In this document: positions 1 through 59,949 of the stretch, piece by piece
Layout of the letters: each line of letters begins with the position of its first letter
Numbering within the stretch: the stretch's first letter is position 1
NCBI GenBank assembly: GCA_046563655.1
Contig: JAJCTO010000009.1
Location: 1,178,001 to 1,242,000 of the forward strand
Origin: Yuukianura sp. NJ FZ-2021
Taxonomy: Eukaryota
Length of the DNA: 64,000 nt
Reading direction: 5' to 3'
Notes under the pieces: model-generated
Seen by the model: only the letters and a program-made list of their open reading frames with translations
The model's database searches: none
What the model was told of the DNA's origin: nothing
Made by a program: the position numbers and the translations under genes

Positions 1-2049
1 AAATGTGAGAATGAACAGAAAGTAATATATATTTTTGAAATCCTCATTAAAAGTGCTACAGGAACCCACTTTCGCTTGCTGTGTCGTCCCTCATCTAGTT
101 ACCTTTATTTATGAAAATTTGTTTCAAAACAAATCATTCGAAAAACCTGCGCGCGGAGCGATGCCGGGTGAAAATGAGTTACTTTTCTGAAATGCTCCTG
201 AAAAGTACTACAGGAACCCAAGTTTATTTGGCGTGGATAGATCGCAATTAAATCTGGTTAGAGCGTACTTAAAAGTTTGAATGAACCGTTCTGCCTCGGA
301 TTTTATCTTGGGTTGGAATACGGCACCCAGGGCAATGTCGAGCACCATTTTGACGCAAAACGACTTAAATTTGTGAGAATCAACATGCAAATGTGAGAAT
401 GAACAGAAAGTAATATATATTTTTGAAATCCTCATTAAAAGTGCTACAGGAACCCACTTTCGCTTGCTGTGTCGTCCCTCATCTAGTTACCTTTATTTAT
501 GAAAATTTGTTTCAAAACAAATCATTCGAAAAACCTGCGCGCGGAGCGATGCCGGGTGAAAATGAGTTACTTTTCTGAAATGCTGCTGAAAAGAACTACA
601 GGAACCCAAGTTTATTTGGCGTGGATAGATCGCAATTAAATCTGGTTAGAGCGTACTTAAAAGTTTGAATGAACCGTTCTGCCTCGGATTTTATCTTGGG
701 TTGGAATACGGCACCCAGGGCAATGTCGAGCACCATTTTGACGCAAAACGACTTAAATTTGTGACAATGAACATGCAAATGTGAGAATGAACAGAAAGTA
801 ATATATATTTTTGAAATCCTCATTAAAAGTGCTACAGGAACCCACTTTCACTTGCTGTGTTGTCCCTCATCTAGTTACCTTTATTTATGAAAATTCATGT
901 TTCAAAACAAAGACTTCAAAAGAAATGCATTCCGGAGCGATGCTGGGTAAAAGTCAACTATATTTTTGAAACCTCATAAAAAGGGCTACAGGAACCCACT
1001 TTCACTTGCTGTGTCGTCCCTCATCTCGTGACTTTTTTATGAAAATTTGTTTCAAAACAAATCATTCGAAAAACCTGCACGCGGAGCGATGCCGGGTGAA
1101 AATGTGTTACTTTTCTGAAATCCTCCTGAAAAGTACTACAGGAACCCAAGTTTAATTGGCGTGGATAGATCGCAATTAAATCTGGTTAGAGCGTACTTAA
1201 AAGTTTGAATGAACCGTTCTGCCTCGGATTTTATCTTTGGTTGGAATACGGCACCCAGGGCAATGTCGAGCACCATTTTGACGCAAAACGACTTAAATTT
1301 GTGACAATGAACATGCAAATGTGAGAATGAACAGAAAGTAATATATATTTTTGAAATCCTCATTAAAAGTGCTACAGGAACCCACTTTCACTTGCTGTGT
1401 TGTCCCTCATCTAGTTACCTTTATTTATGAAAATTCATGTTTCAAAACAAAGACTTCAAAAGAAATGCATTCCGGAGCGATGCTGGGTAAAAGTCAACTA
1501 TATTTTTGAAACCTCATAAAAAGGGCTACAGGAACCCACTTTCACTTGCTGTGTCGTCCCTCATCTCGTGACTTTTTTTATGAAAATTTGTTTCAAAACA
1601 AATCATTCGAAAAACCTGCACGCGGAGCGATGCCGGGTGAAAATGTGTTACTTTTCTGAAATCCTCCTGAAAAGTACTACAGGAACCCAAGTTTAATTGG
1701 CGTGGATAGATCGCAATTAAATCTGGTTAGAGCGTACTTAAAAGTTTGAATGAACCGTTCTGCCTCGGATTTTATCTTGGGTTGGAATACGGCACCCAGG
1801 GCAATGTCGAGCACCATTTTGACGCAAAACGACTTAAATTTGTGAGAATCAACATGCAAATGTGAGAATGAACAGAAAGTAATATATATTTTTGAAATCC
1901 TCATTAAAAGTGCTACAGGAACCCACTTTTACTTGCTGTGTCGTCCCTCATCTAGTTAGTAGAATGTAAGGTAGGACAACAGCACCCTCCTATTTTTAGA
2001 ACAGCCACGGGGGTTAGTCGGCCGCAATATTGGGGAGGGAAAAAACTCA

Positions 2050-2170
2050 CAACGACAAAAAATGTCGTCAACAAAAAAGTCGACAACAAAAATGTCGACA
2101 AAAAAAAAAGATCGAAAACAAAAAATGTCGACAAAAAATGTCGATAACAAAAAAGTCGACAACAAAAAAC
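2050..2170 (+). repeat. ~14-16-bp degenerate tandem repeat of GTCGAC plus A-tract within the TIR
   Basis: Repeated (t/a)gtcgacaa(c)aaaaa units; mirrored at ~7695-7815. Confidence 0.85.
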
Positions 2171-2200
2171 AAGTAGTGAAATTTTTGTATAGAAAATTCG

Positions 2201-2342
2201 AACATTGACTCTAGCCTAGTGTCTAAGTGCTTGTAACTACTTCTCTACGGCCGCTGGTTCGAATACCACACGGGTCAACGCTTGTGGTTAAGAAGTTACA
2301 AGTACTTAGATACAAGACTGGGGTCAATGTTATTATTTTTTT
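2201..2342 (+). ncRNA. Putative Pol III tRNA-like/VA-like hairpin RNA in left TIR
   Basis: A-box-like TAGCCTAGTG 2212-2221; B-box GGTTCGAATAC 2256-2266; 38-bp stem 2201-2238/2294-2331 with 4 G-U pairs; T7 run at 2336-2342. Confidence 0.6.
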
Positions 2343-2690
2343 ATTTATTTTTAGTTAAGGATTGAGTTCTTGGAAAAATATCTTTTCTCAACATTATTTT
2401 TATGGTGTTAAGCAAATTTCAGCTTTTGACATTTTTTGTTAAATTGTATAATCTACTTTAGTAGTAGCAGTTTTGGCATTTGAATAAATTCAAACTATCC
2501 CCCAATATTTTAAAAGATGGCTACAGAGTACAAAGTATTCAAGCTGAAACGCTTGAACACCTCATGGCGACAGCGTTGGATTTATCCAGCCCAGTCCTGG
2601 GGGAGCCTTTGGCCGTGCGAGCCAGCCATTGGAAGCCAGCTTTTGGACGCCAGCCCTCAATTCGCATGAATTTTTAACGTAATATAACAA

Positions 2691-3112
2691 CTTCACTGCA
2701 TAATACAATGGTCTCTCTACATAATACAATGACGTCTCTGCATAATACAATGGCCTCTCTGCATAATACAATGGCCTCTCTGTATAATACAATGGTCTCT
2801 CTGCATAATACAATGGCCTCTCTGCATAATACCATGGCCTCTCTGCATAATACCATGGCCCAGTTGTATAATACCACAACGTCATTACATAATGCCGAGT
2901 TTATTCTGTACAACATAGCGAGTTTGCGAGAGTAAAGTCAGACTTGGTATTTGTATAATACCATGGTCACATTGTATAATACCATGCTCACGTTGTATAA
3001 TACCATGGTCACGTTGTATAATACCATGGTCACGCTGTATAATACCATGGTCACGTTGTATAATGCCATGGTCACGTTGTATAATACAATAACCTCACTG
3101 CATAATACAACA
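2691..3112 (+). repeat. Two 21-bp minisatellite arrays (cataatacaatggcctctctg; tataataccatggtcacgttg)
   Basis: 21-bp periodicity gives heptad pseudo-ORFs (SLHNTMA; TLYNTMV); mirrored at ~5720-5851 and ~6020-6210. Confidence 0.92.
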
Positions 3113-3179
3113 TTTTTTGTCAATTTTACATCCAACCACCACCACCACCACAACCCCAACGTGCCCACCCATGCAAAAG

Positions 3180-3215
3180 TATAAATAGCGACGTTGACTT
3201 GCTCATCTCTCAGTT
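3180..3215 (+). promoter_or_regulatory. TATA box plus Inr core promoter for the ATPase gene
   Basis: TATAAATA 3180-3187, TCAGTT 3210-3215 (about -32 spacing), ATG at 3268. Confidence 0.7.
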
Positions 3216-3267
3216 TCATTTCAGACGTTGAGCTGTGAAGACGTGAAGAATCTGTGGACTATACATC

Positions 3268-4077
3268 ATGGATACCAGTACAGCGTGCGATATTTGCTGC
3301 AGACAATTCTCACGAACGGACGCATTGAAACGACACAAGTTAACTTGTCATAGTAGCGTCGCAGTATCGAAAATGCTTCAGGTATGCATGAATCAGCGGG
3401 AAAAATCTACTATGTTTCGACATGTACACTCTGGGAAAAAGTTTGACCCGCACTTGTTTGCACCGTTTACTATGTGCATCAGTGGAATGACTCAGAGCGG
3501 CAAAAGCACCCTTGTGAAGCAAATACTTCTACGACGAAACGAAATTATCGAGACTAATATTGACGAGCCATTGGAACGTATCATGTATTGCTACACTGAG
3601 TCCTACGCTGTTTGGAGAATTGAAGACCAAGATTCCAACTATACAATTTCATCGTGGGCTCCCTGAAAAATGGCATGACGGAACCGACAAGCCGTCAGTC
3701 GTCGTCCTTGACGATTTGATGCATGAAGCAGGCAAAAACGGAGAAGTTGGAGCTGCGTTCACAAGGACTTCGCATCACCGCAACGTATCTCTCATCATTC
3801 TTGTGCAAAACTTTTTCACAGGAATATGAAAGAAATCACGTCAAACTGTCACTACATTGCTCTAATGAAGAATCCGCGAGACTCTCAATTTGTAGCTTGT
3901 CTTGGACGTCAAATGAATGGAGGAAAGAAGAATACAACCATGGAAGAAGCCTACAAGGAATGCATGTCAAAGCAATATGGATATCTATTCATCGATTTAA
4001 CTCAACGACAAAATGATTTGTTTCGCATTAGAGATAATATATTTCCTGAAAATTGTCGAATCTATGCTAATGAATGA
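3268..4077 (+). pseudogene. A32-like (FtsK/HerA superfamily) DNA packaging ATPase with N-terminal C2H2 zinc finger; two frameshifts (~3600, ~3822)
   Basis: CDICCRQFSRTDALKRHKLTCH (C2H2); Walker A PFTMCISGMTQSGKS; Walker B VVVLDDLM; FTRTSHHRNVSLIILVQNFF; KNPRD; YGYLFIDL, all typical of Polinton ATPases. AATAAA at 4081. Confidence 0.9.
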
Positions 4078-4174
4078 ATGAATAAACACACTACACGGTA
4101 GAAGTTCTATTTTCAAGTTTTTTATTTTGAAAATTTGGAATCTAACGAATATACAGTCATAAAGGTGTATAATT

Positions 4175-5549
4175 CTACGAAATTACGCTAGTGAGAAACT
4201 CTCCAAGTATTGGTAATGCGGCAGCGAGAAGAGCTGGCAGGAACCCACCGTGCTGTATAAGTAGTTTTTCTTGTCTTCAATCGATCCTTTAGCTTCTGCA
4301 ACACGTTTAATCTTATATCGATGCGGTCTCAAGATATTTTTGACGGTGGCCTCAATAGGAATGTTGCCCTGGATTACGTCCTGAACACATTTGTGTAACC
4401 CAAGAATTTGACCAGGAGACGCTGTGGAGAGAAGTGTCTCGCGTATAATAGGGGAGTGTTGGTTCATCTGGTGGAGAAATTGATAATGTCGTATGGGACC
4501 TGGTGATGGTTTAGCTCCTCCAGTTTGTCTATACTCTTCTCCCCCTTCTTCATCCCTTTCGTCTTCCTCGTTTTCCTCCTCTTCTTCTACTTCTTCTCCT
4601 ACTTCTTCTTCTACTTCTTCTTCCCCTTCTTCATCCCCCTCGTCTTCCTTTCCACGTGCGGGTGATTTCTAGAAAGCAATTTAGGTTCATCTCGAACGAG
4701 CAAGCCTCGGTGGCTGATCGGAAGCAGATATTTTGGAATGCCTGTCTGAATCATAAAGTCTACGATGACAGGAATCATTTGTCTTGTCAACTTATATCTT
4801 CCATCCGCAAGTTTTCGTATTCCCTCCTCGAACTCGCTCCTGGGTATGTTGGCATCACCCAGACTAACGCTATTGTTCGCAAAGGTTGCACCATTTGTTA
4901 CAAAAAATTGTGCTAGCTGTTTTCCAACAGCTGAAAACTGGTCCAGAGTAAACGGTGGAGTTGTCGGTGCTGCTGTCGGCGTTTCGTCTTTCGCTATTTG
5001 CGATTCTTTTTTAAATCTCTTGGAAAATGGCATCTCGAGCGCGTCATTCGGCTTTACCACAGTATTTGACCAACCTTTCGTTGGATTTTCTGACCAGGTC
5101 GTAATTCGGTCATATCTGTCTTCGGTTTTTCTGGCTGACTTTTCCGGTCCACCATCCCATCCAGTAAAGTGACTTGTAGACATATCATTCAACCGCCTAT
5201 CGTTTACAACGTTCACATTGACGTAGCCTTCCCTTTGCTTCCGTTGATTTTCCCAGTTCTGGCGTAATTCCGTTTGCATCATATGATTCTGAAGTTCGAT
5301 TGGAATGTTGTTCCCAGAATCTCGCGAATTACGCTCATGAAGCTCCATTGGTCCACGGCTCTGAGACATGTTCATTGTATGTTGCTGTAAGTATTGTACG
5401 GGTTTAGTATCAGGCAAAAAACCATCATGGATTTGCTTTTCTCCAAAATAACTTTTGCAAGGGCTGATTTGCTGAGACTCGTATGTCTCAAGCTGATCCA
5501 GTAGACTGTTGTAGTCGTCTTCGTGAACAAGAATGTATTTTTGCGCCAT
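4175..5549 (-). CDS. Reconstructed ~458-aa virion core-like polyprotein: N-terminal MAQKYILV domain, acidic linker, C-terminal PW/pVII-like domain (two -1 A-run frameshifts)
   Basis: Adding one A at ~4667 and one at ~4267 joins the 330-aa ORF, an E-rich tract, RQTGG|A and ...QDVIQGNIPI...KKKLLIQHGG|FLPALLAAALPILGEFL*, the typical Polinton PW signature. Minus-strand AATAAA at 4121-4126. Confidence 0.7.
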
Positions 5550-5615
5550 GACTGTTAGCCTAACCGCTCCAGATGGTAAAATCTTTACGTCTTCACAGCT
5601 CAACGTCTGAAATGA

Positions 5616-5651
5616 AACTGAGAGATGACCAAGTCAACGTCGCTATTTATA
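5616..5651 (-). promoter_or_regulatory. Mirror TATA plus Inr promoter driving the minus-strand core gene
   Basis: Inverted copy of 3180-3215; ATG at 5549. Confidence 0.65.
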
Positions 5652-6457
5652 CTTTTGCATGGGTGGGCACGTTGGGGTTGTGGTGGTGGTGGTGGTTGGA
5701 TGTAAAATTGACAAAAAATGTTGTATTATGCAGTGAGGTTATTGTATTATACAACGTGACCATAGCATTATACAACGTGACCATGGTATTGTACAACGTG
5801 AGCATGGTATTATACAATGTGACCATGGTATTATACAACGTGACCATGGTATTGACGATGATCTGACTCTCGAAGGAAGGTTACCTGCGGGAAATAATTC
5901 CGAGGAAGAACTCTGCAAGGTGTAATCACGGAGTAAGTTCCCGTGACATTGACAAAGTCTGACTTTACTCTCGCAAACTCGCTATGTTGTACAGAATAAA
6001 CTCGGCATTATGTAATGACGTTGTGGTATTATACAACTGGGCCATGGTATTATGCAGAGAGGCCATGGTATTATGCAGAGAGGCCATTGTATTATGCAGA
6101 GAGACCATTGTATTATACAGAGAGGCCATTGTATTATGCAGAGAGGCCATTGTATTATGCAGAGACGTCATTGTATTATGTAGAGAGACCATTGTATTAT
6201 GCAGTGAAGTTGTTATATTACGTTAAAAATTCATGCGAATTGAGGGCTGGCGTCCAAAAGCTGGCTTCCAATGGCTGGCTCGCACGGCCAAAGGCTCCCC
6301 CAGGACTGGGCTGGATAAATCCAACGCTGTAGCCATGAGGTGTTCAAGCGTTTCAGCTTGAATACTTTGTACTCTGTAGCCATCTTTTAAAATATTGGGG
6401 GATAGTTTGAATTTATTCAAATGCCAAAACTGCTACTACTAAAGTAGATTATACAAT

Positions 6458-7309
6458 TTAACAAAAAATGTCAAAAGCTGAAATTTGCTTAACACCATAA
6501 AAAATAATGTTGAGAACTGTATCATCAGAGTATGACGATTGACGATACATGTTAAGATGGACCAGTCTAAAGTGCTCGTTAAAGTCATGGTTTGGAGTAC
6601 GTCTTTGGTTGTTAATTTGAATTTGTTGATGTTTGGTAACGTCCAGCACATGCTTCGAGTAGGCTAGATTTAAAATGAAAGACTCTGGCGATAAATAGCA
6701 GGCAAATCGGTGAAACACGTTTGGTTTTTTGTATGGATGAACTTTCTTGTTCGTCTTTAAACCGGCAGCCTTGCCAATTGTTTCTTTAATTCTGTTGATA
6801 CGAGTGTTGAGAATTTTATCGCTTAGCTTTCTCATGTATTCACGTTTTGTCTCATGAATGAGCTCATCCAGATACTTTTCTGTGTATGAGGTCGGAAAGC
6901 AGCCACACTTTAGAAGGGATTCCACCAGAAGAGGAATGTCCATGATTTCGATGGGAAGTGGACGACCGCTACGTATGAGAAACACTCGATTCACATTGCA
7001 TGTGATGCAGTGGATAGGAAGAAGCGGTCGCTCCAGCTTTTCTTTGAGTGTTTGAAACTCTGCTGGTGACTGCTGACGAAATAACTTTAGGAATCCATTC
7101 TTGCGGTTAGTTGCCATGATTGTTTCAAAGTGTGGTAAATCCTTCATCATTTCCCCTGCGGCTATGTATGCTTTTACTAGCTTTTCCACCACGGTTGGCA
7201 GTTCCTCTGCTGTCAGAAGAATCGAATGTCCAGAAATCTTGACTGCGATGACATCTTCCATGTCAATAAACGGCTCCGAAACCTCCATGTATGACCTGAA
7301 TCCACGCAT
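6458..7309 (-). CDS. Hypothetical protein, 283 aa (element 1)
   Basis: Uninterrupted non-repetitive ORF with a TCAGTT Inr-like motif just upstream of the ATG; no family recognised. Confidence 0.65.
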   Translation of the reverse strand: MRGFRSYMEVSEPFIDMEDVIAVKISGHSILLTAEELPTVVEKLVKAYIAAGEMMKDLPHFETIMATNRKNGFLKLFRQQSPAEFQTLKEKLERPLLPIHCITCNVNRVFLIRSGRPLPIEIMDIPLLVESLLKCGCFPTSYTEKYLDELIHETKREYMRKLSDKILNTRINRIKETIGKAAGLKTNKKVHPYKKPNVFHRFACYLSPESFILNLAYSKHVLDVTKHQQIQINNQRRTPNHDFNEHFRLVHLNMYRQSSYSDDTVLNIIFYGVKQISAFDIFC

Positions 7310-7474
7310 GCTTATAGTTTGAGACTGGTTTCTGAACTGATGATTGCTAGTCTCAAAACTCGCTGTTTAAGTAGCTACTTGGACAACGTTTGAAATGCTA
7401 TTTTGAAATTTTTTCAAAAACGTTTTTTCTAAAGAAGTGTTATTTTGAGAACTTTTCAAGAAAAAACGTTTTTC

Positions 7475-7907
7475 TTGAGAAAAGACATTTTTCCAAGAAC
7501 TCAATCCTTAACTAAAAATAAATAAAAAAATAATAACATTGACCCCAGTCTTGTATCTAAGTACTTGTAACTTCTTAACCACAAGCGTTGACCCGTGTGG
7601 TATTCGAACCAGCGGCCGTAGAGAAGTAGTTACAAGCACTTAGACACTAGGCTAGAGTCAATGTTCGAATTTTCTATACAAAAATTTCACTACTTGTTTT
7701 TTGTTGTCGACTTTTTTGTTATCGACATTTTTTGTCGACATTTTTTGTTTTCGATCTTTTTTTTTGTCGACATTTTTGTTGTCGACTTTTTTGTTGACGA
7801 CATTTTTTGTCGTTGTGAGTTTTTTCCCTCCCCAATATTGCGGCCGACTAACCCCCGTGGCTGTTCTAAAAATAGGAGGGTGCTGTTGTCCTACCTTACA
7901 TTCTACT
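7475..7907 (-). repeat. Right outer TIR of element 1 (includes second copy of Pol III-like hairpin, 7535-7665, minus strand)
   Basis: Reverse complement of 1958-2391. Confidence 0.95.
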
Positions 7908-10900
7908 TAGTTACCTTTATTTATGAAAATTCATGTTTCAAAACAAAGAATTCAAAAGAAATGCATTCCGGAGCGATGCTGGGTAAAAGTCAGCTACATT
8001 TTTGAAATCCTCATAAAAAAGGCTAAAGGAGCCCACTTTCGCTTGCTGTGTTGTCCTTCATCTCGTGACTTTTTTATGAAAATTTGTTTCAAAACAAATC
8101 ATTCGAAAAACCTGCACGCGGAGCGATGCCGGGTGAAAATGTGTTACTTTTCTGAAATCCTCCTGAAAAGTACTACAGGAACCCAAGTTTAATTGGCGTG
8201 GATAGATCGCAATTAAATCTGGTTAGAGCGTACTTAAAAGTTTGAATGAACCGTTCTGCCTCGGATTTTATCTTTGGTTGGAATACGGCACCCAGGGCAA
8301 TGTCGAGCACCATTTTGACGCAAGACGACTTAAATTTGTGAGAATGAACATGCAAATGTGAGAATGAACAGAAAGTAATATATATTTTTGAAATCCTCAT
8401 TAAAAGTGCTACAGGAACCCACTTTCACTTGCTGTGTCGTCCCTCATCTAGTTACCTTTATTTATGAAAATTCATGTTTCAAAACAAAGACTTCAAAAGA
8501 AATGCATTCCGGAGCGATGCTGGGTAAAAGTCAACTATATTTTTGAAACCTCATAAAAAGGGCTACAGGAACCCACTTTCACTTGCTGTGTCGTCCCTCA
8601 TCTCGTGACTTTTTTTATGAAAATTTGTTTCAAAACAAATCATTCGAAAAACCTGCACGCGGAGCGATGCCGGGTGAAAATGTGTTACTTTTCTGAAATC
8701 CTCCTGAAAAGTACTACAGGAACCCAAGTTTAATTGGCGTGGATAGATCGCAATTAAATCTGGTTAGAGCGTACTTAAAAGTTTGAATGAACCGTTCTGC
8801 CTCGGATTTTATCTTTGGTTGGAATACGGCACCCAGGGCAATGTCGAGCACCATTTTGACGCAAAACGACTTAAATTTGTGAGAATCAACATGCAAATGT
8901 GAGAATGAACAGAAAGTAATATATATTTTTGAAATCCTCATTAAAAGTGCTACAGGAACCCACTTTTACTTGCTGTGTCGTCCCTCATCTAGTTACCTTT
9001 ATTTATGAAAATTCATGTTTCAAAACAAAGAATTCAAAAGAAATGCATTCCGGAGCGATGCTGGGTAAAAGTCAGCTACATTTTTGAAATCCTCATAAAA
9101 AAGGCTAAAGGAGCCCACTTTCGCTTGCTGTGTTGTCCTTCATCTCGTGACTTTTTTTTATGAAAATTTGTTTCAAAACAAATCATTCGAAAAACCTGCA
9201 CGCGGAGCGATGCCGGGTGAAAATGTGTTACTTTTCTGAAATCCTCCTGAAAAGTACTACAGGAACCCAAGTTTAATTGGCGTGGATAGATCGCAATTAA
9301 ATCTGGTTAGAGCGTACTTAAAAGTTTGAATGAACCGTTCTGCCTCGGATTTTATCTTTGGTTGGAATACGGCACCCAGGGCAATGTCGAGCACCATTTT
9401 GACGCAAAACGACTTAAATTTGTGAGAATCAACATGCAAATGTGAGAATGAACAGAAAGTAATATATATTTTTGAAATCCTCATTAAAAGTGCTACAGGA
9501 ACCCACTTTCACTTGCTGTGTCGTCCCTCATCTAGTTACCTTTATTTATGAAAATTCATGTTTCAAAACAAAAAATTCAAAAGAAATGCATTCCGGAACG
9601 ATGCCGGGTAAAAGTCAACTATATTTTTGAAACCCTCCTGAAAAGTACTACAGGAACCCAACTTTAATTGGCGTGGAAAGATCGCAATTAAATCTAGTTA
9701 GAGCGTACTTAAAAGTTTGAATGAACCGTTCTGCCTCGGATTTTATCTTGGGTTGGAATACGGCACCCAGGGCAATGTCGAGCACCATTTTGACGCAAAA
9801 CGACTTAAATTTGTGAGAATCAACATGCAAATGTTAGAATGAACAGAAAGTAATATATATTTTTGAAATCCTCATTAAAAGTGCTACAGGAACCCACTTT
9901 TACTTGCTGTGTCGTCCCTCATCTAGTTACCTTTATTTATGAAAATTCATGTTTCAAAACAAAGAATTCAAAAGAAATGCATTCCGAAACGATGCTGAAT
10001 AAAAGTCAGCTACATTTTTGAAATCCTCATAAAAAAGGCTAAAGGAGCCCACTTTCGCTTGCTGTGTTGTCCTTCATCTCGTGACTTTTTTTTATGAAAA
10101 TTTGTTTCAAAACAAATCATTCGAAAAACCTGCACGCGGAGCGATGCCGGGTGAAAATGTGTTACTTTTCTGAAATCCTCCTGAAAAGTACTACAGGAAC
10201 CCAAGTTTAATTGGCGTGGATAGATCGCAATTAAATCTGGTTAGAGCGTACTTAAAAGTTTGAATGAACCGTTCTGCCTCGGATTTTATCTTGGGTTGGA
10301 ATACGGCACCCAGGGCAATGTCGAGCACCATTTTGACGCAAAACGACTTAAATTTGTGAGAATCAACATGCAAATGTGAGAATAAACAGAAAGTAATATA
10401 TATTTTTGAAATCCTCATTAAAAGTGCTACAGGATCCCACTTTCACTTGCTGTGTCGTCCCTCATCTAGTTACCTTTATTTATGAAAATTCATGTTTTAA
10501 AACAAAGAATTCAAAAGAAATGCATTCCGGAACGATGCCGGGTAAAAGTCAACTATATTTTTGAAATCCTCCTGAAAAGTACTACAGGAACCCAACTTTA
10601 ATTGGCGTGGAAAGATCGCAATTAAATCTAGTTAGAGCGTACTTAAAAGTTTGAATGAACCGTTCTGCCTCGGATTTTATCTTGGGTTGGAATACGGCAC
10701 CCAGGGCAATGTCGAGCACCATTTTGACGCAAAACGACTTAAATTTGTGAGAATCAACATGCAAATGTTAGAATGAACAGAAAGTAATATATATTTTTGA
10801 AATCCTCATTAAAAGTGCTACAGGAACCCACTTTTGCTTGCTGTGTCGTCCCTCATCTAGTTACCTTTATTTATGAAAATTCATGTTTCAAAACAAAGAA

Positions 10901-13900
10901 TTCAAAAGAAATGCATTCCGAAACGATGCTGAATAAAAGTCAGCTACATTTTTGAAATCCTCATAAAAAAGGCTAAAGGAGCCCACTTTCGCTTGCTGTG
11001 TTGTCCTTCATCTCGTGACTTTTTTTTACGAAAATTTGTTTCAAAACAAATCATTCGAAAAACCTGCACCCGGAGCGATGCCGGGTGAAAATGTGTTACT
11101 TTTCTGAAATGCTCCTGAAAAGTACTACAGGAACCCAAGTTTAATTGGCGTGGATAGATCGCAATTAAATCTGGTTAGAGCGTACTTAAAAGTTTGAATG
11201 AACCGTTCTGCCTCGGATTTTATCTTGGGTTGGAATACGGCACCCAGGGCAATGTCGAGCACCATTTTGACGCAAAACGACTTAAATTTGTGAGAATCAA
11301 CATGCAAATGTGAGAATGAACAGAAAGTAATATATATTTTTGAAATCCACATTAAAAGTGCTACAGGAACCCACTTTCACTTGCTGTGTCGTCCCTCATC
11401 TAGTTACCTTTATTTATGAAAATTCATGTTTCAAAACAAAGAATTCAAAAGAAATGCATTCCGGAACGATGCCGGGTAAAAGTCAACTATGTTTTTGAAA
11501 TCCTCCTGAAAAGTACTACAGGAGCCCAACTTTAATTGGCGTGGAAAGATCGCAATTAAATCTAGTTAGAGCGTACTTAAAAGTTTGAATGAACCGCTCT
11601 GCCTCGGATTTTATCTTGGATTGGAATACGGCACCCAGGGCAATGTCGAGCACCATTTTGACGCAAAACGACTTAAATTTGTGAGAATGAACATGCAAAT
11701 GTGAGAATGAACAGAAAGTAATATATATTTTTTAAATCCTCATTAAAAGTGCTACAGGAACCCACTTTCACTTGCTGTGTCGTCCCTCATCTAGTTACCT
11801 TTATTTATGAAAATTCATGTTTCAAAACAAAGAATTCAAAAGAAATGCATTCCGGAGCGATGCTGGGTAAAAGTCAACTATATTTTTGAAACCTCATAAA
11901 AAGGGCTACAGGAACCCACTTTCACTTGCTGTGTCGTCCCTCATCTCGTGACTTTTTTTATGAAAATTTGTTTCAAAACAAATCATTCGAAAAACCTGCA
12001 CGCGGAGCGATGCCGGGTGAAAATGTGTTACTTTTCTGAAATCCTCCTGAAAAGTACTACAGGAACCCAAGTTTAATTGGCGTGGATAGATCGCAATTAA
12101 ATCTGGTTAGAGCGTACTTAAAAGTTTGAATGAACCGTTCTGCCTCGGATTTTATCTTGGGTTGGAATACGGCACCCAGGGCAATGTCGAGCACCATTTT
12201 GACGCAAAACGACTTAAATTTGTGAGAATCAACATGCAAATGTGAGAATGAACAGAAAGTAATATATATTTTTGAAATCCTCATTAAAAGTGCTACAGGA
12301 ACCCACTTTCGCTTGCTGTTTCGTCCCTCATCTAGTTACCTTTATTTATGAAAATTCATGTTTCAAAACAAAGAATTCAAAAGAAATGCATTCCGAAACG
12401 ATGCTGGGTAAAAGTCAACTATGTTTTTGAAACCTCATAAAAAGGGCTACAGGAACCCACTTTCACTTGCTGTGTCGTCCCTCATCTCGTGACTTTTTTT
12501 ACGAAAATTTGTTTCAAAACAAATCATTCGAAAAACCTGCACGCGGAGCGATGCCGGGTGAAAATGTGTTACTTTTCTGAAATCCTCCTGAAAAGTACTA
12601 CAGGAACCCAAGTTTAATTGGCGTGGATAGATCGCAATTAAATCTGGTTAGAGCGTACTTAAAAGTTTGAATGAACCGTTCTGCTTCGGATTTTATCTTG
12701 GGTTGGAATACGGCACCCAGGGCAATGTCGAGCACCATTTTGACGCAAAACGACTTAAATTTGTGAGAATCAACATGCAAATGTGAGAATGAACAGAAAG
12801 TAATATATATTTTTGAAATCCTCATTAAAAGTGCTACAGGAACCCACTTTCGCTTGCTGTTTCGTCCCTCATCTAGTTACCTTTATTTATGAAAATTCAT
12901 GTTTCAAAACAAAGAATTCAAAAGAAATGCATTCCGGAGCGATGCTGGGTAAAAGTCAACTATATTTTTGAAACCTCATAAAAAGGGCTACAGGAACCCA
13001 CTTTCACTTGCTGTGTCGTCCCTCATCTCGTGACTTTTTTTTACGAAAATTTGTTTCAAAACAAGTCATTCGAAAAACCTGCACGCGGAGCGATGCCGGG
13101 TGAAAATGTGTTACTTTTCTGAAATCCTCCTGAAAAGTACTACAGGAACCCAAGTTTAATTGGCGTGGATAGATCGCAATTAAATCTGGTTAGAGCGTAC
13201 TTAAAAGTTTGAATGAACCGTTCTGCCTCGGATTTTATCTTGGGTTGGAATACGGCACCCAGGGCAATGTCGAGCACCATTTTGACGCAAAACGACTTAA
13301 ATTTGTGAGAATGAACATGCAAATGTGAGAATGAACAGAAAGTAATATATATTTTTGAAATCCTCATTAAAAGTGCTACAGGAACCCACTTTCGCTTGCT
13401 GTGTCGTCCCTCATCTAGTTACCTTTATTTATGAAAATTTGTTTCAAAACAAATCATTCGAAAAACCTGCGCGCGGAGCGATGCCGGGTGAAAATGAGTT
13501 ACTTTTCTGAAATGCTCCTGAAAAGTACTACGGGAACCCAAGTTTAGTTGGCGTGGATAGATCGCAATTAAATCTGGTTAGAGCGTACTTAAAAGTTTGA
13601 ATGAACCGTTCTGCCTCGGATTTTATCTTGGGTTGGAATACGGCACCCAGGGCAATGTCGAGCACCATTTTGACGCAAAACGACTTAAATTTGTGACAAT
13701 GAACATGCAAATGTGAGAATGAACAGAAAGTAATATATATTTTTGAAATCCTCACTAAAAGTGCTACAGGAACCCACTTTCACTTGCTGTGTTGTCCCTC
13801 ATCTAGTTACCTTTATTTATGAAAATTCATGTTTCAAAACAAAGAATTCAAAAGAAATGCATTCCGGAACGATGCCGGGTAAAAGTCAACTATATTTTTG

Positions 13901-41007: not shown

Positions 41008-41009
41008 TT

Positions 41010-41026
41010 TGGTGCATTTGCCGAGA
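41010..41026 (+). promoter_or_regulatory. Primer-binding site, tRNA-Gly(GCC)-like
   Basis: TGGTGCATTTGCCGAGA begins 2 nt after the LTR; compare the complement of the tRNA-Gly 3' end, TGGTGCATTGGCCGGGA. Confidence 0.8.
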
Positions 41027-42755: not shown

Positions 42756-43299
42756 TGTTCTTTGACCGTTGTCCGAGGGTATAAACTTACAACTGCGTGA
42801 CGGGAATTGAATCAACTACAGAAAGTGTCTGGACTTTTAGGTGCGGCGTAATCAACCATAGTCACCGCGACAGTTGTTTCTAAAATTTAGCATGTGCCCA
42901 TTGTCCACAAGTAAAATTAACGAAATCGGGTTTTGTTAAGAAAACCGGAGGCCAAGGGAAGGTTTCTCCCGCTTTTTGGGACACTATGAGGAAGCGAATG
43001 CCACTCAAATTCTTTAATTCATACAACCACAAAGATAATCATACCACCGTGATTCCTGGTCATTAGTGGTACCATAGCAGATACTTTTGTGAACTTTGCT
43101 TTCTTTTAAAGTACTTGGACAGTTGAATGTGATGGATATCATGATTTCTGTTAAATCCGATTTTACTGCCGAATCAGTAGCATTCTGGAAAACTGCTCGA
43201 ATCCTGCTCAGGGACTTTGTTTGTCCTGTAGAAATACTAATTCCTGTGGGAGAACCACAGAGGACTATTTGAGATTTTTCAGAGAAATTGCAGAAGAAG

Positions 43300-46855: not shown

Positions 46856-46882
46856 GTTTTCCGAACTTTTGTCGAGGACGAC

Positions 46883-46904
46883 AAAAAGAATAGGCGTTGG
46901 AGAG
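46883..46904 (+). promoter_or_regulatory. Polypurine tract
   Basis: AAAAAGAATAGGCGTTGGAGAG immediately before the 3' LTR. Confidence 0.7.
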
Positions 46905-47507
46905 TGTTGCACCTGCACTTGCACAACAATACTTTCAGTACCTGCACTTGTACTTTCACTTCCACAAAACACTGGACCAAGGTCGCACGTGCACTACCTA
47001 GTTGCTAAGCACATCTAGTTGCCAAGTAGACTTAGTCACTAAGCACACCAAGTACCAGGCTAATCCCTTCCGAGCGAAAAAACCACAAGGCCAAGTGACC
47101 ACAAGGCCAAGTGGAAGAAGATTGTAAATTTATCCAATTAGCACTACCGCAGCCAGCGCCGCTAATGCGGTTAGGGAAGCAAAAGTTGTTTTTCAAAATT
47201 CCCAATTAACGACCACCTAGCAACCTTAATTAAGCAATTAAGCACCTCTGTATAAATAACATTCAGTCACGACTTAGAAGTAAGTCAGTACAGAAGTCGA
47301 AGAAGTAAGCAAAACTCCGAATAAAGAAAGTACGACACTTAATACGAACATAAGGACTTCATTTCACCTCCTCGCAACAATGGACTGACTGGCATGGAAC
47401 CTCGGCCGCCCGGAAGGGGTCTCTAGGGCCCTTGACCCCACGGGGCAAACATCGGTCTCCCCCGTGGGCCCTTCCTGAAATGGCGAACGCCTATTTCCGG
47501 CGTTACA
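46905..47507 (+). repeat. 3' LTR
   Basis: Direct repeat of 40406-41007 with about 9 differences. Confidence 0.95.
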
Positions 47508-53500: not shown

Positions 53501-53626
53501 ACTAAATCACACGTTGAAAAACATGTTGTCAGCGTCCATCCTTGAGCTCAAACTAGAAGTGCCGGTAAAGTGTCAAGCATGCCTTCACTTTAGATGCAAA
53601 CGATGAGTTCTCATTTTGACACCATG

Positions 53627-54815
53627 AGCTATACTGGGTGGTAGGGGAATGGCACTTTTTTCAAAATGGCCGCCGTCCTTATCAGCTATTGCATCTGCAT
53701 ATGACGTTTTTTGCTCATGCGCAAAAACGTTTTTGCGCATGACGTCACCCCCCCACTTCCGCACCCCCCCACCCCCCCCCCCACTATATATCCCTTCCCC
53801 CTATATCCACCCCCCCCCCCACGTGACCCCGCCCCCCCTTACAAAAAAAAATACAACAATAGAAATTTTGGCAACAATGTAAATTTGACAACAATGGATT
53901 TTTTTTTGAAATTTTCAAGTAAAAAATATTTTGAAAAAAAAAATAATTTTTTTGAAATTTTAAAATTGAAAAAAAAATTAAATTGAAAATTCAAATTTCT
54001 AAAAAACAAAAAGCAACTTTCCCCAGATTACCCCAACTTTAAATGTCAAGGTCACGCACACTTTTTCAAGGTCACTCCAATTTTTTTTTCAAGGTCATGC
54101 GCGCCATTTGCATTGGCATGTGCATTTGCGTCAGGTCATGCGCGCTGATTTGCAATTTCGTGTAAATTGTTCAATGTCATTCAACTTTTTTTCAAGGTCA
54201 AGCGAGCATTTTGAAATTGTCAAGTCCCGGGAGCCCTTTTCTGGGATCCCGGGACCAGGAAGATCAAGTATGGCCCATGGGCAGTATATTCGGCTGGTCA
54301 GAGGATTAGTGGGGTACCACTCGGCCACTGCCAAAAGAAACCGCAAACCACTTCCGGTTAACCTGTTGGAACAAACCGCAAACCACTTCCGGTCAACTTG
54401 CCCGCGCATATGCACGTACGAATCCATTTGAATTTTCACTTGTGTTTGCTAAAAACACCAAGGTCAAAGTTCAAGCCGAGTGACGCGCCACTGTCAGACG
54501 CTTCACTCGGCAATAGACCCGGTCACGCTCGGGGGCGTGGCTAGCCGCCCGACTCTTGAGCCAATCAGTATTGAGCATTTCAAAAGTGGGCGTGGCTCGA
54601 GGAAATGGAGACATTTGATTGGTCGAGACTTGCCGCTACACCCGGGGGTGTGGCCAACTCTGGCCAATGTACGTTTGCAATTTCAAAAAGGGGCGTGGCC
54701 TCAGAAAATGGAGACATTTGATTGGTCGACAAAACTTGCCACACATTGGGCCCGCCCTCAAGCCATAGTGTTGTCATTTCCTGCTTAAACTCAGACAAGT
54801 CGCCCGGGCGGACTG
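53627..54815 (+). repeat. Left TIR of element 3
   Basis: Reverse complement of 58766-59949; identical 102-aa and 72-aa pseudo-ORFs on opposite strands. Confidence 0.95.
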
Positions 54816-54940
54816 TTTATACACAAAATGGTCATGCTTACTTGTGGGTGGTTACATTGCGACTGTCCCGTCTTCACCCCTTGCCACGCGACCCCTGCAT
54901 TTTTTTTGCAGTTTTTTACGGTGACGTCCTTGGTTGTGCC

Positions 54941-54976
54941 TATATAAGACCGTCAAGTTGCCCCAAACGGCTCAGT
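54941..54976 (+). promoter_or_regulatory. TATA plus Inr for the minor capsid gene
   Basis: TATATAAG at 54941, TCAGT at 54972, ATG at 55068. Confidence 0.65.
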
Positions 54977-55067
54977 GTTTCACTAGCTTCTGCGTCGATA
55001 ACATTACCTTCTCCTAAAAAGTTCAAGTGAAAGTGTTAATTTGTTATTGTTCAAATCGCCGTCAGCA

Positions 55068-56139
55068 ATGGCCGTCGTTGTTAAACTCAGTTCGCGATAC
55101 ATTATCGTGGATAGCGCTTTAAACAGCAGGTTTTACCCAGAAAATAAACCAAACGAGTTTCGTGCCAATTTGGATCCTGTGCTTGATGGCTGGAAGCAAC
55201 CACTGGAGGTTGCCATTTCTGGAATGCACTACACTCCAGCACCCAAAACCCAACGAAACATTTTTGGCCACAGTGAGGGTGACAATGTCATAAACGTAAC
55301 CGAGCACTTGGAGGTGACGGTTACAATCTCAAAAATGGATGGAATAATAAAGTTTTTCGGTCATGTCAACAAGGAATTGAAGAAATTTTGACCGAAAAAT
55401 TGTCATATCATACACAAACAAGGTCTTTTCACTTACCAACGACGAAAAAGACCATTTGGTTACCATGACAGCCGAGTATGCCCAAGCGTTTGGCTTTGAT
55501 ACCAACACGTTCCCAAATGGAGTGACGCATGGCCATGAATATACCGAAGCTGTTTTTGACGCAATTGATCCAACAATTAACATGACGCTCCACATTTTCC
55601 AAGACAAGGTCAACTTGGCAACCGTGGTAGAACCAAAAGAAAAGACGGTGGGAGGCCTAATTCTAGCCATGAACGCCGCCTTGGCTACATTCCAAATTAC
55701 ATTCAAGTACTCTGAGGAAGAGGCTGTACTCTAATACACCCGAGAATCTACAGCCAATTACATTACGACCCTCTCGCCACTTTTGGAAAAAATATTTGGA
55801 CTGCCAATGGGAGCCGCATTCAAGGGATTTAGCCAAACGAATCCAGCCAAGGCCGAAATTGACCTTGGAGTGACGTCAAAACATCTCCTTGTCGTGTGCG
55901 ATCTTGCGGAATATACCCAGTTTGGAGACAAGGTGCTGCCGTTGATTGGAATATTCCCACAAGGCGATCAGGATGGCAAGCCAGTCGACTTGCAAGTCAA
56001 TGTACCGCGTTATTTTGCGGTAAAAGGACAGTCGATGATCAATTCCATTTACGTTCAACTTTTGGACGAAAATCTGGCACCAATTCCTGAAGCACACAGC
56101 GCAACCCAACTTGTTCTTCACGTCAGAAAATCCACCTAA
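55068..56139 (+). pseudogene. Polinton minor capsid protein (penton, single jelly roll); frameshift ~55388 and in-frame TAA 55732-55734
   Basis: N-term YIIVDSALNSRFYPENKPNEFRANL...LEVAISGMHY; C-term LLVVCDLAEYTQFGDKVLPLIGIF...PRYFAV...INSIYVQLLDENLAPI...LVLHVRK. Both match Polinton mCP motifs. Confidence 0.85.
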
Positions 56140-56325
56140 ATTGTCCAAAAACCAGTTATTAACGGCCACAAAAGACAAAATCTGTTCAGTTGACGTCTGA
56201 CTTGCGACCAAGCAACACGAAAACAGCGCAAAACAGTGTAAAATTTACACCAAAACCCTTAAAAACGTCGTCAGTATCAACTTTGTACTCGTCGAAGCAA
56301 CATCTAGTGCATTTTTTGTGTAAAA

Positions 56326-56815
56326 ATGGAAGTTGACGAACCAGGAAACTCTGATTTTAGCAACAATAGTGACAGTGTGACGCCAGAAAATGGCGAAAAC
56401 AAGTGCGACAATGCAAGTTTAGCCACAAAAACGATATCATCGCCCGCTATTGTTCAAAAAATGTCCGCGGAGTTGCCCAAAAAGAGGGCCAAGAAGCGAT
56501 CGCGGCCCAAAAAAGTGTCAAATTTGAAGCAAAATTTACCCAAAAGTGGGTCCAGCAGTACAGATTCAGACGAAAATCTTTGCAACAATTGCAGAAAACT
56601 GCAAATTTCTAAAGACAATAGCAAAAAGTGGGTCCAGCAGTACAGATTCAGACGAAAATCTTTGCAACAATTGCAGAAAACTGCAAATTTCTAAAGACAA
56701 TAGCAGAAAACCAAAGAAATCTACTAAAAGTGCCCGAAAAAGGCATAAGATTGTTGCAAAATTGCAAAATTTGGCGCAAAAAGCTATAAAAGGGAGCCTG
56801 TTTTACAACAATTAG
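56326..56815 (+). pseudogene. Small Lys/Arg/Ser-rich protein, disrupted by an 82-bp tandem duplication
   Basis: PKKRAKKRSRPKK and RKPKKSTKSARKRHK; removing one copy of 56542-56623 restores a single frame. Confidence 0.55.
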
Positions 56816-56960
56816 TCAGTCTGCGTCTGAATTTCGACGAGTAAACACGTGTCTAGTGCGTAGTGCTACCCCAAAGTTTACACGTTAACCCTTGAAAATA
56901 GTGCTCAGTCGTTATTTGGAAACCGTCAAAGCAACATCTCGTGCGTGTTTTTGTGCTAAA

Positions 56961-58270
56961 ATGGAGGTTAATGTGCCAGTGAATTCGAAATTGGTCACCA
57001 CAAGTGCCAAATTTGACCTATTTTCAAAACCAACCACGGATGTGTCGTTCATTTTGGGCAATTATCTAGTAGTGAAACCATTTTCACCATCGACAGACCC
57101 TAATCCAATCTACTTTCGAGTGGAACAGCCGGCACATGGTTACTTGGACCTGTCGGATTCTTTTTAAAACTAGTATTTTCAATTAAAAAAAGTGATGGGA
57201 CGCCACTCACCGATGCAGACCAAATTGCGCCTGAAAATTTATTTTTTCATGCGTTCATTGAGGATTTCAAAGTTTTGGTCAACAATTGCCAAGTAGTTGC
57301 TCAAGGATACCGAGCATACTCGTATGAAGCCTGGATGCTCACTCAACTCTTTAACGGCATTGGAACCAAATGCAGCACATTGTCAAAAGTGGGTTATTAT
57401 GCCGGAGATGTCATGGACACCTACGACGACACAAACCCGAGTTACAAGGCGCGATTAAACTTGGCAAAAAATAGTCAAACGTTTGAAATGATTGGTCGCC
57501 CGTTTGTCGGCCTATTTACGACCAAAAAGTTATTCCCGCACAACACTCAATTCTATTTTGAAATTAAAAAGAGCGATGCATCCTTTTGCTTGCGAGGACC
57601 GGCCACTACCACCAAATACAAAATTACAGTCGAGTCGGCCGAGTATTATATTCGCCAGGTGAATCCCAGCGAAAAAATAGTGACTCAGATCCGGCAAGGG
57701 TTTGCAAAAAACAAAGTGGCCAACTATTCATACGATCAGGCCCACATGCGTTTAGAATATGTGTCGAAAACCTCAGTTCGGTTGATTTGACAAATGCCTA
57801 CCACAGTACTATGCACCCAAAACTTCTTTTAGTTGGCATTTTGGAACTAGAAGTTTACGAAGATAAAAGTTGAAAAGTCGCCATTCAACTTTAAACCCCA
57901 CGGTGTTAGCCGTCTGTTGCTAAAATTTGAGCAAAAACCGTTGGTCTATCAAGAAATGATTTTCAAAGACAAAAATTACATGCTTGCCTATCACAATTTG
58001 TGCAAGTTGGTTTCTCGTCAGACTGAAGGAAATGACATTTCCTACGACAAGTTTGTAAACGGAAATGCAATCTTTGCATTTGACGTCCAGGATTTGTGGA
58101 CTGACGGGTACAATGCGACCAGATCTGGACAATACGGGCTGGAAATTGATTTTGAAACCCCGACGACGAAGGATTTGGTGGTTCTCATCATCGGAGTCGA
58201 AGACGAAACTTTACAAATTGATGGAAATAGAATTACTGGACTTGCATCCAACAAAAAAATATTCTTTTAA
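56961..58270 (+). pseudogene. Polinton major capsid protein (double jelly roll); three homopolymer frameshifts (~57163, ~57770, ~57867)
   Basis: FDLFSKPTTDVSF...KPFSP...PIYFRV...YLDLSDSF; APENLFFHAF; YSYEAW; PFNFKPHGV; ISYDKFVNGNAIFAFDV; LEIDFETP...LVVLII...LQIDGNR. TATAAAA at ~56784 and TCAGT at ~56816. Confidence 0.9.
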
Positions 58271-58690
58271 AAATAACTTTATTTTTAATCTTCATTAGCC
58301 CTGTCTCAAGTCTTTCTTGTTGTAAATTTTTCAACATTTGAAAAATAAACTAATCTCCTCATTCAAAAAAAAACATGGTGTCTTTTATAAATAAAAGTAA
58401 AAAAACGAAAAAAAAAACCAAAAAAAAAAAGAGAAAAAAAAAGAGAAAAAAAGGACAAAAACAAACAAAAACTGTATTCAGTTTTGGTTTTCTGCAAAGC
58501 TGTTGGTGGTGGCACAAATTGCCGGTTGTTTTATACGGTTGTTCAAAGTCAGGTTTATGCCGTACGCTTTTCTCCAAACACGTTTCCGTAATATAATTTA
58601 ACATAGTGTTGTAAGCGTAAGTAACTCGGGCATGCCAGTGACAAACGCCAAGCCTGCGTTTGTATTGTTCCGAAAACGCTTGAACAACAT

Positions 58691-58775
58691 AAAAATTATT
58701 TGGGGGCAGATTGAATCGAACTCACGGATCCTACCATCAGATCTAATCCAAGTGGAGGCTCTAACCAGTCCGCCC
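58691..58775 (-). ncRNA. Putative Pol III tRNA-like small RNA at the inner edge of the right TIR
   Basis: Minus strand GGGCGGACTGGTTAGAGC (A-box/D-arm-like)...GAGTTCGATTC (B-box)...AATCTGCCC (pairs with the 5' end), then AAATAATTTTT. Confidence 0.5.
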
Positions 58776-59949
58776 GGGCGACTTGTCTGAGTTTAAGCAG
58801 GAAATGACAACACTATGGCTTGAGGGCGGGCCCAATGTGTGGCAAGTTTTGTCGACCAATCAAATGTCTCCATTTTCTGAGGCCACGCCCCTTTTTGAAA
58901 TTGCAAACGTACATTGGCCAGAGTTGGCCACACCCCCGGGTGTAGCGGCAAGTCTCGACCAATCAAATGTCTCCATTTCCTCGAGCCACGCCCACTTTTG
59001 AAATGCTCAATACTGATTGGCTCAAGAGTCGGGCGGCTAGCCACGCCCCCGAGCGTGACCGGGTCTATTGCCGAGTGAAGCGTCTGACAGTGGCGCGTCA
59101 CTCGGCTTGAACTTTGACCTTGGTGTTTTTAGCAAACACAAGTGAAAATTCAAATGGATTCGTACGTGCATATGCGCGGGCAAGTTGACCGGAAGTGGTT
59201 TGCGGTTTGTTCCAACAGGTTAACCGGAAGTGGTTTGCGGTTTCTTTTGGCAGTGGCCGAGTGGTACCCCACTAATCCTCTGACCAGCCGAATATACTGC
59301 CCATGGGCCATACTTGATCTTCCTGGTCCCGGGATCCCAGAAAAGGGCTCCCGGGACTTGACAATTTCAAAATGCTCGCTTGACCTTGAAAAAAGTTGAA
59401 TGACATTGAACAATTTACACGAAATTGCAAATCAGCGCGCATGACCTGACGCAAATGCACATGCCAATGCAAATGGCGCGCATGACCTTGAAAAAAATTG
59501 GAGTGACCTTGAAAAAGTGTGCGTGACCTTGACATTTAAAGTTGGGGTAATCTGGGGAAAGTTGCTTTTTGTTTTTTAGAAATTTGAATTTTCAATTTAA
59601 TTTTTTTTTCAATTTTAAAATTTCAAAAAAATTATTTTTTTTTCAAAATATTTTTTACTTTAAAAATTTCAAAAAAATTCCATTGTTGTCAAATTTACAT
59701 TGTTGCCAAAATTTCTATTGTTGTATTTTTTTTTGTAAGGGGGGGCGGGGTCACGTGGGGGGGGGGGGTGGATATAGGGGGAAGGGATATATAGTGGGGG
59801 GGGGTGGGGGGGTGCGGAAGTGGGGGGGGTGACGTCATGCGCAAAACGTTTTTGCGCATGAGCAAAAAACGTCATATGCAGATGCAATAGCTGATAAGGA
59901 CGGCGGCCATTTTGAAAAAAGTGCCATTCCCCTACCACTCAGTATAGCT
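58766..59949 (-). repeat. Right TIR of element 3
   Basis: Reverse complement of 53627-54815. Confidence 0.95.

Follow-up and report, generated by a model that had tools for sequence, protein, structure and literature searches.

Two ~6-kb Polinton-type elements with broken virion genes in satellite DNA of Yuukianura sp., probable derivatives of one-piece elements

Results

Two insertions with Polinton-type ends in satellite DNA

The stretch of DNA analysed here, referred to as the window, comprises 64,000 nucleotides of the Yuukianura sp. NJ FZ-2021 assembly (GCA_046563655.1, contig JAJCTO010000009.1, positions 1,178,001 to 1,242,000). It is eukaryote-like repeat DNA in which three insertions interrupt two satellite arrays, a 388-391-bp satellite that occupies positions 1-1957 and 7908 to ~15900, and a 510-bp satellite that occupies ~15.9-40.4 kb, 47.5-53.6 kb and 59.95-64 kb. 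Two of these insertions, element 1 (1958-7907, 5950 bp) and element 3 (53627-59949, 6323 bp), carry virion genes of the Polinton (Maverick) type, and an earlier note, made from the letters alone, had proposed that they are segments of a multipartite or helper-dependent virus with complementary virion modules. Our analysis shows that each element is now a decaying copy with broken genes, and suggests that both are probably shortened derivatives of ordinary one-piece Polintons.

Both elements have AG...CT ends (element 1 starts AGTAG... and finishes ...CTACT), and both are flanked by target-site duplications (TSDs; coordinates of all features are given in Table 1). The consensus of the 388-391-bp satellite runs through the site of element 1 uninterrupted, as ...CATCTAGTTACC..., and this element is therefore a clean insertion with a 5-bp duplication; since its first base is the same as the next base of the satellite, a 6-bp reading, TAGTTA, is also possible, and the length of its TSD is to that extent ambiguous. 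The empty site that matches element 3 was found 52 times in the 510-bp satellite. Each element was thus inserted by Polinton-type integration, with AG...CT ends and a TSD of 5 or 6 bp, and the boundaries, ends and TSDs that had been called for both were confirmed, with clean empty sites in two satellites. The terminal inverted repeats (TIRs), which had been described as intact, do consist of near-identical arms, but these are not short ends: at ~1.2-1.3 kb per arm, the TIRs make up ~40% of each element. Long TIRs of this kind, like AG...CT ends and a 6-bp TSD, are a Polinton feature.

The inverted ends of element 1 have a complex layout. The inner part of the left arm, module X, includes two 21-bp tandem arrays as well as a TATAAAT that lies 88 nt ahead of the ATG of the ATPase gene, and the presence of an inverted copy, module X', means that a TATAAAT-containing stretch lies 88-102 nt upstream of the ATG for the ATPase and ORF312 (open reading frame 312) alike. 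The right arm has an extra 958 bp (~6517-7474, including most of ORF283) that is absent from the left arm, and the single-copy interior of the element is confined to 3250-5581. Within it the ATPase gene and ORF312 converge, each with a copy of module X ahead of it. The convergent genes, the duplication of X and the 958-bp asymmetry of the arms together argue for inversion and duplication events, and not for a tidy genome segment.

The TIRs are rich in short repeated motifs, whose possible roles were read by eye. At 2040-2170, the TIR of element 1 has A-rich repeats around GTCGAC that may be protein-binding or promoter sites. At 58840-59250, the TIR of element 3 has repeated CCAAT-box-like and GCCACGCCC units, two CCGGAAGTGGTTTGCGGTTT repeats, and TGACGTCA near the terminus, which were likewise read as possible protein-binding or promoter sites.

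Capsid and packaging genes

Element 3 carries a gene for a predicted double jelly-roll major capsid protein (MCP). A fragment of it (57104-57787) gave 623 matches at E<=0.001 in a library of 1.84 billion proteins, mostly of ~420-445 aa, the closest relative being 49% identical. The single-sequence fold of the window's own fragment was unusable (predicted local distance difference test, pLDDT, 36), and the assignment is based on family membership and on the fold modelled for P0001, the closest relative (44-49% identity). The P0001 model, built from a 77-sequence alignment (pLDDT 91.1, predicted template modelling score 0.89), is a double jelly-roll, and in Foldseek it matched SGIV (Singapore grouper iridovirus; E 2e-16), PBCV-1, Sputnik and mavirus (4e-14), with E values ranging from 1e-16 to 1e-12. 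In a library of viral models, P0001 scored best against a protein of a Cotesia bracovirus (E 5e-22); adomavirus LO7 and virophage MCPs came next. The proposed MCP of element 3 is thus upheld at the level of the family, by the 623 matches and a modelled fold that falls among double jelly-roll capsids; this Polinton feature is found in element 3 only. Other searches were negative, namely the homologue search with the MCP fragment at the setting for "longer" lengths, tblastn against phage records, and a scan of IMG/VR with the MCP alignment. Profiles of the MCP and of the penton-like protein gave nothing significant in PDB sequence searches, where the best match across the two was adenovirus hexon (E 0.19).

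Upstream of the MCP gene lies a penton-like gene. One relative was found for it, P0153 (E 2e-20). It aligns with the ORFs that directly precede the MCP in related contigs, and its homologue in relatives is the ORF flanked by integrase and MCP. It had been called a minor capsid protein, a name based on homology and gene order, and its product is a candidate penton. Between it and the MCP gene is a small basic ORF of no recognisable family; L007, one of the related contigs described below, has a 111-aa ORF at the same position. The capsid block as a whole has its own upstream TATA-like motifs.

Element 1 carries an A32/FtsK-type packaging ATPase, a Polinton feature that is found in this element only, and in a frameshifted gene. 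The N-terminal fragment of the gene identified two relatives, P0151 and P0152, that are 52-63% identical to it and both belong to Pfam family PF04665 (Pox_A32), in agreement with the ATPase called from the letters alone, and the window copy has a Walker A-like GMTQSGKST. In both of the relatives found, the ATPase and the homologue of ORF312 form a single co-oriented ORF of 471-527 aa. Element 1 thus departs by rearrangement from the layout of its two nearest protein relatives. The label "PW/core" that ORF312 had been given is tentative; the homology of this ORF is to the C-terminal half of these longer ATPase proteins. Searches of the ESM Atlas with ORF312 and ORF283 gave no usable match, comparison of the window ORFs with Pfam and PHROGs gave weak P-loop and zinc-finger matches and nothing else, and a scan of IMG/VR with P0151 gave no matches.

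Regarding the relatives themselves, the ATPase of P0151 and P0152 is fused to a C-terminal region of ~200-250 aa that ends in a basic tail, a long form unlike the ~250-aa ATPases known from Polintons. P0151 and the window copy have a C2H2-like finger ahead of the ATPase, which P0152 lacks.

Table 1. Position of features in elements 1 and 3, in window coordinates.
Feature	Position	Strand	Description
Element 1 TSD, TAGTT	left 1953..1957; right 7908-7912		one TAGTT in satellite consensus
Element 1 left inverted end	1958..3249		outer 434 bp (1958-2391) and 865-bp module X (2385-3249)
Candidate Pol III RNA hairpin	2201..2331; mirror copy 7535-7665	+; mirror copy -	A-box-like 2212-2222, B-box-like 2256-2266, then T7 run
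A32-type packaging ATPase	3268..4077	+	N-terminal C2H2-like finger; three frame pieces, breaks near 3600 and 3810
94-aa ORF, function not recognised	4183..4467	-	downstream of ORF312; no Pfam match
ORF312	4611..5549	-	homologous to C-terminal half of ATPase proteins P0151/P0152 (471-527 aa); strand opposite to ATPase
Module X'	5582..6516		935 bp, inverted copy of X; puts the same TATAAAT promoter-like stretch before ORF312
ORF283	6458..7309	-	mostly inside the 958 bp found in the right arm only; no recognisable family
Element 1 right outer inverted end	7475..7907		433 bp; differs from left arm by 1 substitution and 1 indel
Element 3 TSD, ACCATG (6 bp)	left 53621..53626; right 59950-59955		duplication flanks both sides
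Element 3 left inverted end	53627..54819		1193 bp
Penton-like gene	55068..56139	+	frame break near 55385; in-frame TAA at 55732
Small basic ORF	56326..56812	+	between penton-like gene and MCP; 3' part altered by 82-bp tandem duplication 56542-56710
Predicted double jelly-roll MCP gene	56961..58270	+	frame breaks near 57163, 57790 and 57855
Element 3 right inverted end	58762..59949		1188 bp; 4 substitutions and 9 indels against left arm, all indels in homopolymers

Lesions in the genes

The two elements as assembled contain 6 frameshifts, 1 in-frame stop and the 82-bp tandem duplication. Two of the frameshifts are in the ATPase gene, one is in the penton-like gene, which also has the in-frame TAA, and three are in the MCP gene. 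The breaks in the ATPase gene are frameshifts and not introns, because the sequence of the relatives is continuous across them; the column of the TAA at 55732 is a sense residue in both aligned relatives; and the short middle piece of the MCP gene aligns to relatives in a different frame. The description as intact, given earlier for the TIRs, holds for them alone: in the interiors, the ATPase, penton-like and MCP genes are broken and the basic ORF is altered.

To gauge assembly error, 44 satellite monomers (22,440 bp) were compared. They contained 9 indel events, and among their homopolymer runs of 4-5 nt, 704 in all, a single indel was seen, compared to 6 frameshifts in ~3.2 kb of genes. Random assembly error is therefore an unlikely source of the frameshifts, since indels are far rarer in the satellite than in the genes.

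Missing enzymes and the relation between the two elements

Neither the polymerase, the integrase nor the protease of Polintons was found. No polymerase was detected in the window by tblastn (E<=1e-3) with those of two related contigs, L007 and L023, and no ORF of either element could hold one. For the rve integrase, the ORFs of the elements gave no Pfam match, and tblastn with the integrases of 5 relatives gave only chance-level matches in the window. A profile of the adenain-type protease made from 7 relatives had no match better than E ~4 in the six-frame translation of the window. A possible protease stub downstream of the MCP gene, a tblastn match of 19-21 residues (E 0.04-0.3), was rejected, as the protease profile failed to recover it. 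These results agree with the prior observation that the protein-primed DNA polymerase of family B (pPolB), integrase and protease are all lacking from both elements.

Comparison of element 1 with element 3 by blastn gave no similarity, TIRs included, so that the statement that the two share no gene extends to their DNA. The first 30-35 nt of both contain a weak motif, AG.TA...GGTAGG..AA..GCAC; shuffled sequences did as well in 38 of 2000 trials over 60 nt, and in 51 of 2000 over 35 nt. Unrelated TIRs that share a weak terminal motif are in line with distantly related Polinton lineages and not with segments of one genome. The earlier note had itself allowed that two different families might be involved, and the lack of blastn similarity between the TIRs and the difference in TSD length agree with this caveat.

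Gene order and short derivatives among relatives

To place the capsid genes in context, metagenome and assembly contigs were scanned with a 5-sequence MCP alignment, and the 28 loci obtained were then examined with the proteins of relatives and with Pfam. The penton-like gene lay upstream of the MCP gene at 13 of the 28 loci, with an rve integrase upstream of it at 5, and an adenain-like protease lay downstream of the MCP gene at 11; ATPase and MCP were on one contig at 5, and a PF03175 polymerase was present at 2, although many of the loci are short contigs in which the absence of a gene means little. The order in L007 was pPolB (a 1259-aa ORF), rve integrase, penton, 111-aa ORF and MCP, and the order of penton, small ORF and MCP in element 3 is the same. 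In L013 the order was penton, MCP, protease and ATPase, and in L023 and L025 the MCP was followed, at intervals, by ATPase and then pPolB. The overall order in relatives of the capsid family was polymerase, integrase, penton, capsid, protease and ATPase, and on the basis of this order on related contigs, the capsid family belongs to one-molecule elements. A segmented arrangement was seen in none of the 28 related loci. Comparison of both elements with these loci by tblastx and blastn revealed nothing beyond the known genes. Among sequencing runs, 5 from 2 studies were listed with 9-61% of the words sampled from element 3, and none of those listed was an RNA run.

The 1259-aa ORF of L007 (1251-5027) has the family-B polymerase motifs KLLNNSLYGK and YGDTDS; its Pfam matches were a weak one to Endonuclease VII and one to a zinc finger, with none to a polymerase.

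Two of the related contigs hold short derivatives. L008, a contig of another genome, contains an independent 4948-bp element (6701-11648). Its ends are AG...CT, its TIRs measure at least 483 bp and its TSD, TATGTT, is 6 bp long; it has a BEN-domain ORF, and the match of its MCP to relatives stops at about residue 270-290 of ~430. In L027, inverted repeats (1-148 and 6058-6204) enclose penton, a fragment of the MCP, and protease. Since L008 and L027 are themselves short derivatives, internal deletion with haphazard breakpoints does occur in this capsid family. A further contig, L009, matches 1322 bp of the L008 element with 100% identity.

A Pol III-like hairpin in the ends of element 1

Each TIR of element 1 contains a hairpin of ~130 nt with a minimum free energy of -66.2 kcal/mol (z -9.07) and sequences resembling the A and B boxes of RNA polymerase III (Pol III) promoters. 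The boxes have 1 mismatch each and are 44 nt apart, and this was the sole such pair in the 64-kb window, compared to 0.02 expected per shuffle. The unit had no tRNA match and matched no Rfam family at gathering score, and its sub-threshold Rfam matches were RUF6-5 and MIR821. Element 3 has an exact A-box match, yet no B box was found there even with 3 mismatches allowed. Of the Pol III-like units that had been assigned to both elements, the one in element 1 is thus partly supported, by motif and fold, and the one in element 3 is not supported.

The third insertion

Element 2 (40404-47506) interrupts the 510-bp satellite with 7103 bp of other sequence, bounded by direct terminal repeats of 603 bp with 98.5% identity, and with TG...CA ends if a 4-bp duplication, ACAG, is assumed. 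It includes a 15-bp tandem array (43488-43981) and, at 45653-46855, an ORF of 400 aa for which Pfam gave no match; ORFs for reverse transcriptase or integrase are lacking. The element resembles a non-autonomous one of the long-terminal-repeat type.

Discussion

Origin of the two elements

The observations are best explained if elements 1 and 3 are decayed, non-autonomous internal-deletion derivatives, partly rearranged, of ordinary monopartite Polinton/Maverick elements from two lineages, and we consider this the probable origin of both. Each would descend from a full-length parent element. Both long inverted ends would have been kept as the cis sites needed by the integrase and the protein-primed polymerase, together with what was left of the morphogenesis block: the ATPase region in element 1, and the penton, small ORF and MCP in element 3. 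Polymerase, integrase and protease would have been lost by internal deletion, and element 1 would have undergone an inversion and a duplication as well. The deletions may have preceded integration, in which case a defective genome was replicated and integrated in trans, or they may have taken place in situ afterwards. Because neither element encodes a polymerase or an integrase, any movement needed enzymes in trans, and if the short forms moved as such, these would have been supplied by full-length elements elsewhere. The term "helper-dependent" used in the earlier note is thus appropriate in the ordinary sense in which non-autonomous elements lacking polymerase and integrase depend on others, and nothing was seen that goes beyond that sense.

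Several points weigh against this interpretation. The link between parent and derivative is drawn from distant relatives, the closest MCP being 49% identical. Element 3 keeps exactly the block of penton, small ORF and MCP, with no detectable stub of integrase or protease, and this would require two deletions at gene boundaries, a tidier outcome than expected of random deletion. The frameshifts sit at short homopolymer runs, as do all 9 indels between the arms of element 3, so that systematic assembly error might account for them, though it would leave the in-frame stop and the 82-bp duplication unexplained. The arms of the TIRs differ by merely 0.2-0.3% in substitutions, yet the genes carry seven lesions, which may mean that these lesions predate the last move of the elements, or that the arms have been homogenised by gene conversion. 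Finally, the weak motif in the first 30-35 nt of both elements could mean that their recognition sites are related.

Some of the same features might be expected if the elements had evolved as short, satellite-like mini-Polintons that depended on a full-length Polinton as helper for replication, integration and maturation, the copies in the window being dead descendants. The clean TSDs and near-identical 1.2-kb ends are compatible with this, as are the retention in element 3 of an entire capsid block preceded by TATA-like motifs of its own, the duplication in element 1 of a promoter-like module so that each gene has one, and the occurrence of a second short derivative, L008, in another genome. 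We nevertheless think such an origin unlikely, because the ATPase, penton-like and capsid genes are broken, the truncated capsid gene of L008 points to haphazard deletion and not to design, and amplification of a short form is not in evidence. Still more doubtful is the extension of this idea, that capsid-only and packaging-only short derivatives constitute a recurring satellite-like class that parasitises full-length Polintons, with a VA-RNA-like Pol III hairpin (see below) in element 1. If it were true, defective-interfering or satellite genomes would be part of Polinton populations, and would integrate into the satellite DNA of the host and persist there.

The proposal that the elements are segments of a multipartite Polinton-like virus, whose ~6-kb TIR-bounded units integrate separately and whose replication and integration segments lie elsewhere, appears very improbable. 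It draws on the non-overlapping gene sets and similar sizes of the two elements (5950 and 6323 bp), and on their weak shared terminal motif (38 of 2000 shuffles over 60 nt). Bidnaviruses are the known segmented protein-primed viruses, and their segments, ~6-kb linear units, share terminal sequences and together hold a complete set of intact genes. Since the segments of bidnaviruses share termini, the segments of one genome would be expected to do so here, but blastn found no shared terminal sequences, the weak 30-35-nt motif aside, and the TSD lengths differ. Neither is there a complete set of intact genes in the window, where the ATPase, penton-like and capsid genes are disrupted, and polymerase, integrase and protease are absent. 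The lack of a protease in both elements is telling, as the protease lies downstream of the capsid gene at 11 of the 28 related loci. Moreover, the neighbours visible on related contigs are in single-molecule order, with ATPase and capsid on one contig at 5 of the 28 loci, and the short derivative L008 arose in another genome with its capsid gene cut by deletion. The segmented virus inferred from complementary virion modules is therefore not supported.

It is just as improbable that the short elements, or their long inverted ends, are artefacts of a mis-assembled longer element, because, although the region is rich in satellite and stretches of 552-633 nt in the inverted arms reach 100% identity, matching TSDs flank both elements at precise empty sites in two different satellites, the arms have private differences, and the satellite monomer lengths are regular.

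Comparison with known systems

Bidnaviridae, the analogy drawn in the earlier note, resemble elements 1 and 3 in consisting of linear units of ~6 kb with inverted terminal repeats at their ends. Unlike bidnavirus segments, however, the two elements have unrelated termini, broken genes and an incomplete gene set, and the case cautions against taking complementary gene content of neighbouring remnants as segmentation. We found no description of a segmented Polinton in the titles and abstract openings of the literature on non-autonomous or multipartite Polintons.

Adenovirus virus-associated (VA) RNAs are transcribed by Pol III and carry A and B boxes internally. The hairpin of element 1 would be comparable in being ~130 nt long and highly structured, with A- and B-box-like motifs and a T run after it, but it matches no Rfam family at gathering score, and element 3 has no counterpart. 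For specialists, the question is whether the hairpin is transcribed as a small RNA, which would parallel the adenoviral VA RNAs.

A counterpart among short derivatives is the L008 mini-element, which is likewise bounded by TIRs with AG...CT ends, has a 6-bp TSD and an MCP of the same family, and lacks polymerase and integrase. It differs in its truncated MCP, its BEN-domain ORF and the sequence of its TIRs. As a second case, in another genome, it raises the question of how frequent short TIR-bounded Polinton derivatives are, and whether they are mobilised in trans.

Like non-autonomous derivatives of DNA transposons, elements 1 and 3 keep the terminal cis sequences and TSDs, lack mobility enzymes and have a leftover interior; unlike them, the leftovers are viral structural and packaging genes. 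In a study of the lizard (PMC3014272), non-autonomous internal-deletion families are described for hAT and Helitron elements, together with an apparent absence of non-autonomous Polinton copies in this animal. We found little open literature on short Polinton derivatives, and the phrase "non-autonomous polintons" occurs in one paper, where it means Tlr1.

The likeness to Polintons/Mavericks (polintoviruses, including the adintoviruses of animals) lies in the AG...CT ends, long TIRs and 5- or 6-bp TSD, the double jelly-roll MCP with a penton-like gene just upstream in element 3, and the A32-type ATPase in element 1. The study of the lizard gives a 6-bp TSD and long TIRs as typical features, with an example of 17.5 kb (PMC3014272). 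The elements in the window differ in that they lack the protein-primed polymerase, the rve integrase and the adenain-type protease, their genes are broken, and they are ~6 kb long rather than 15-25 kb, with TIRs that take up ~40% of each. According to a further paper, all Polintons by definition encode pDNAP, the DNA polymerase, and integrase (PMC5499653), and because the definition requires both, elements 1 and 3 are derivatives and not strict Polintons. If this reading holds, the window provides an ordinary, clear example of Polinton/Maverick decay, in which the enzymes have been lost, the ends have been kept, and fragments of the virion module survive in heterochromatic satellite DNA.

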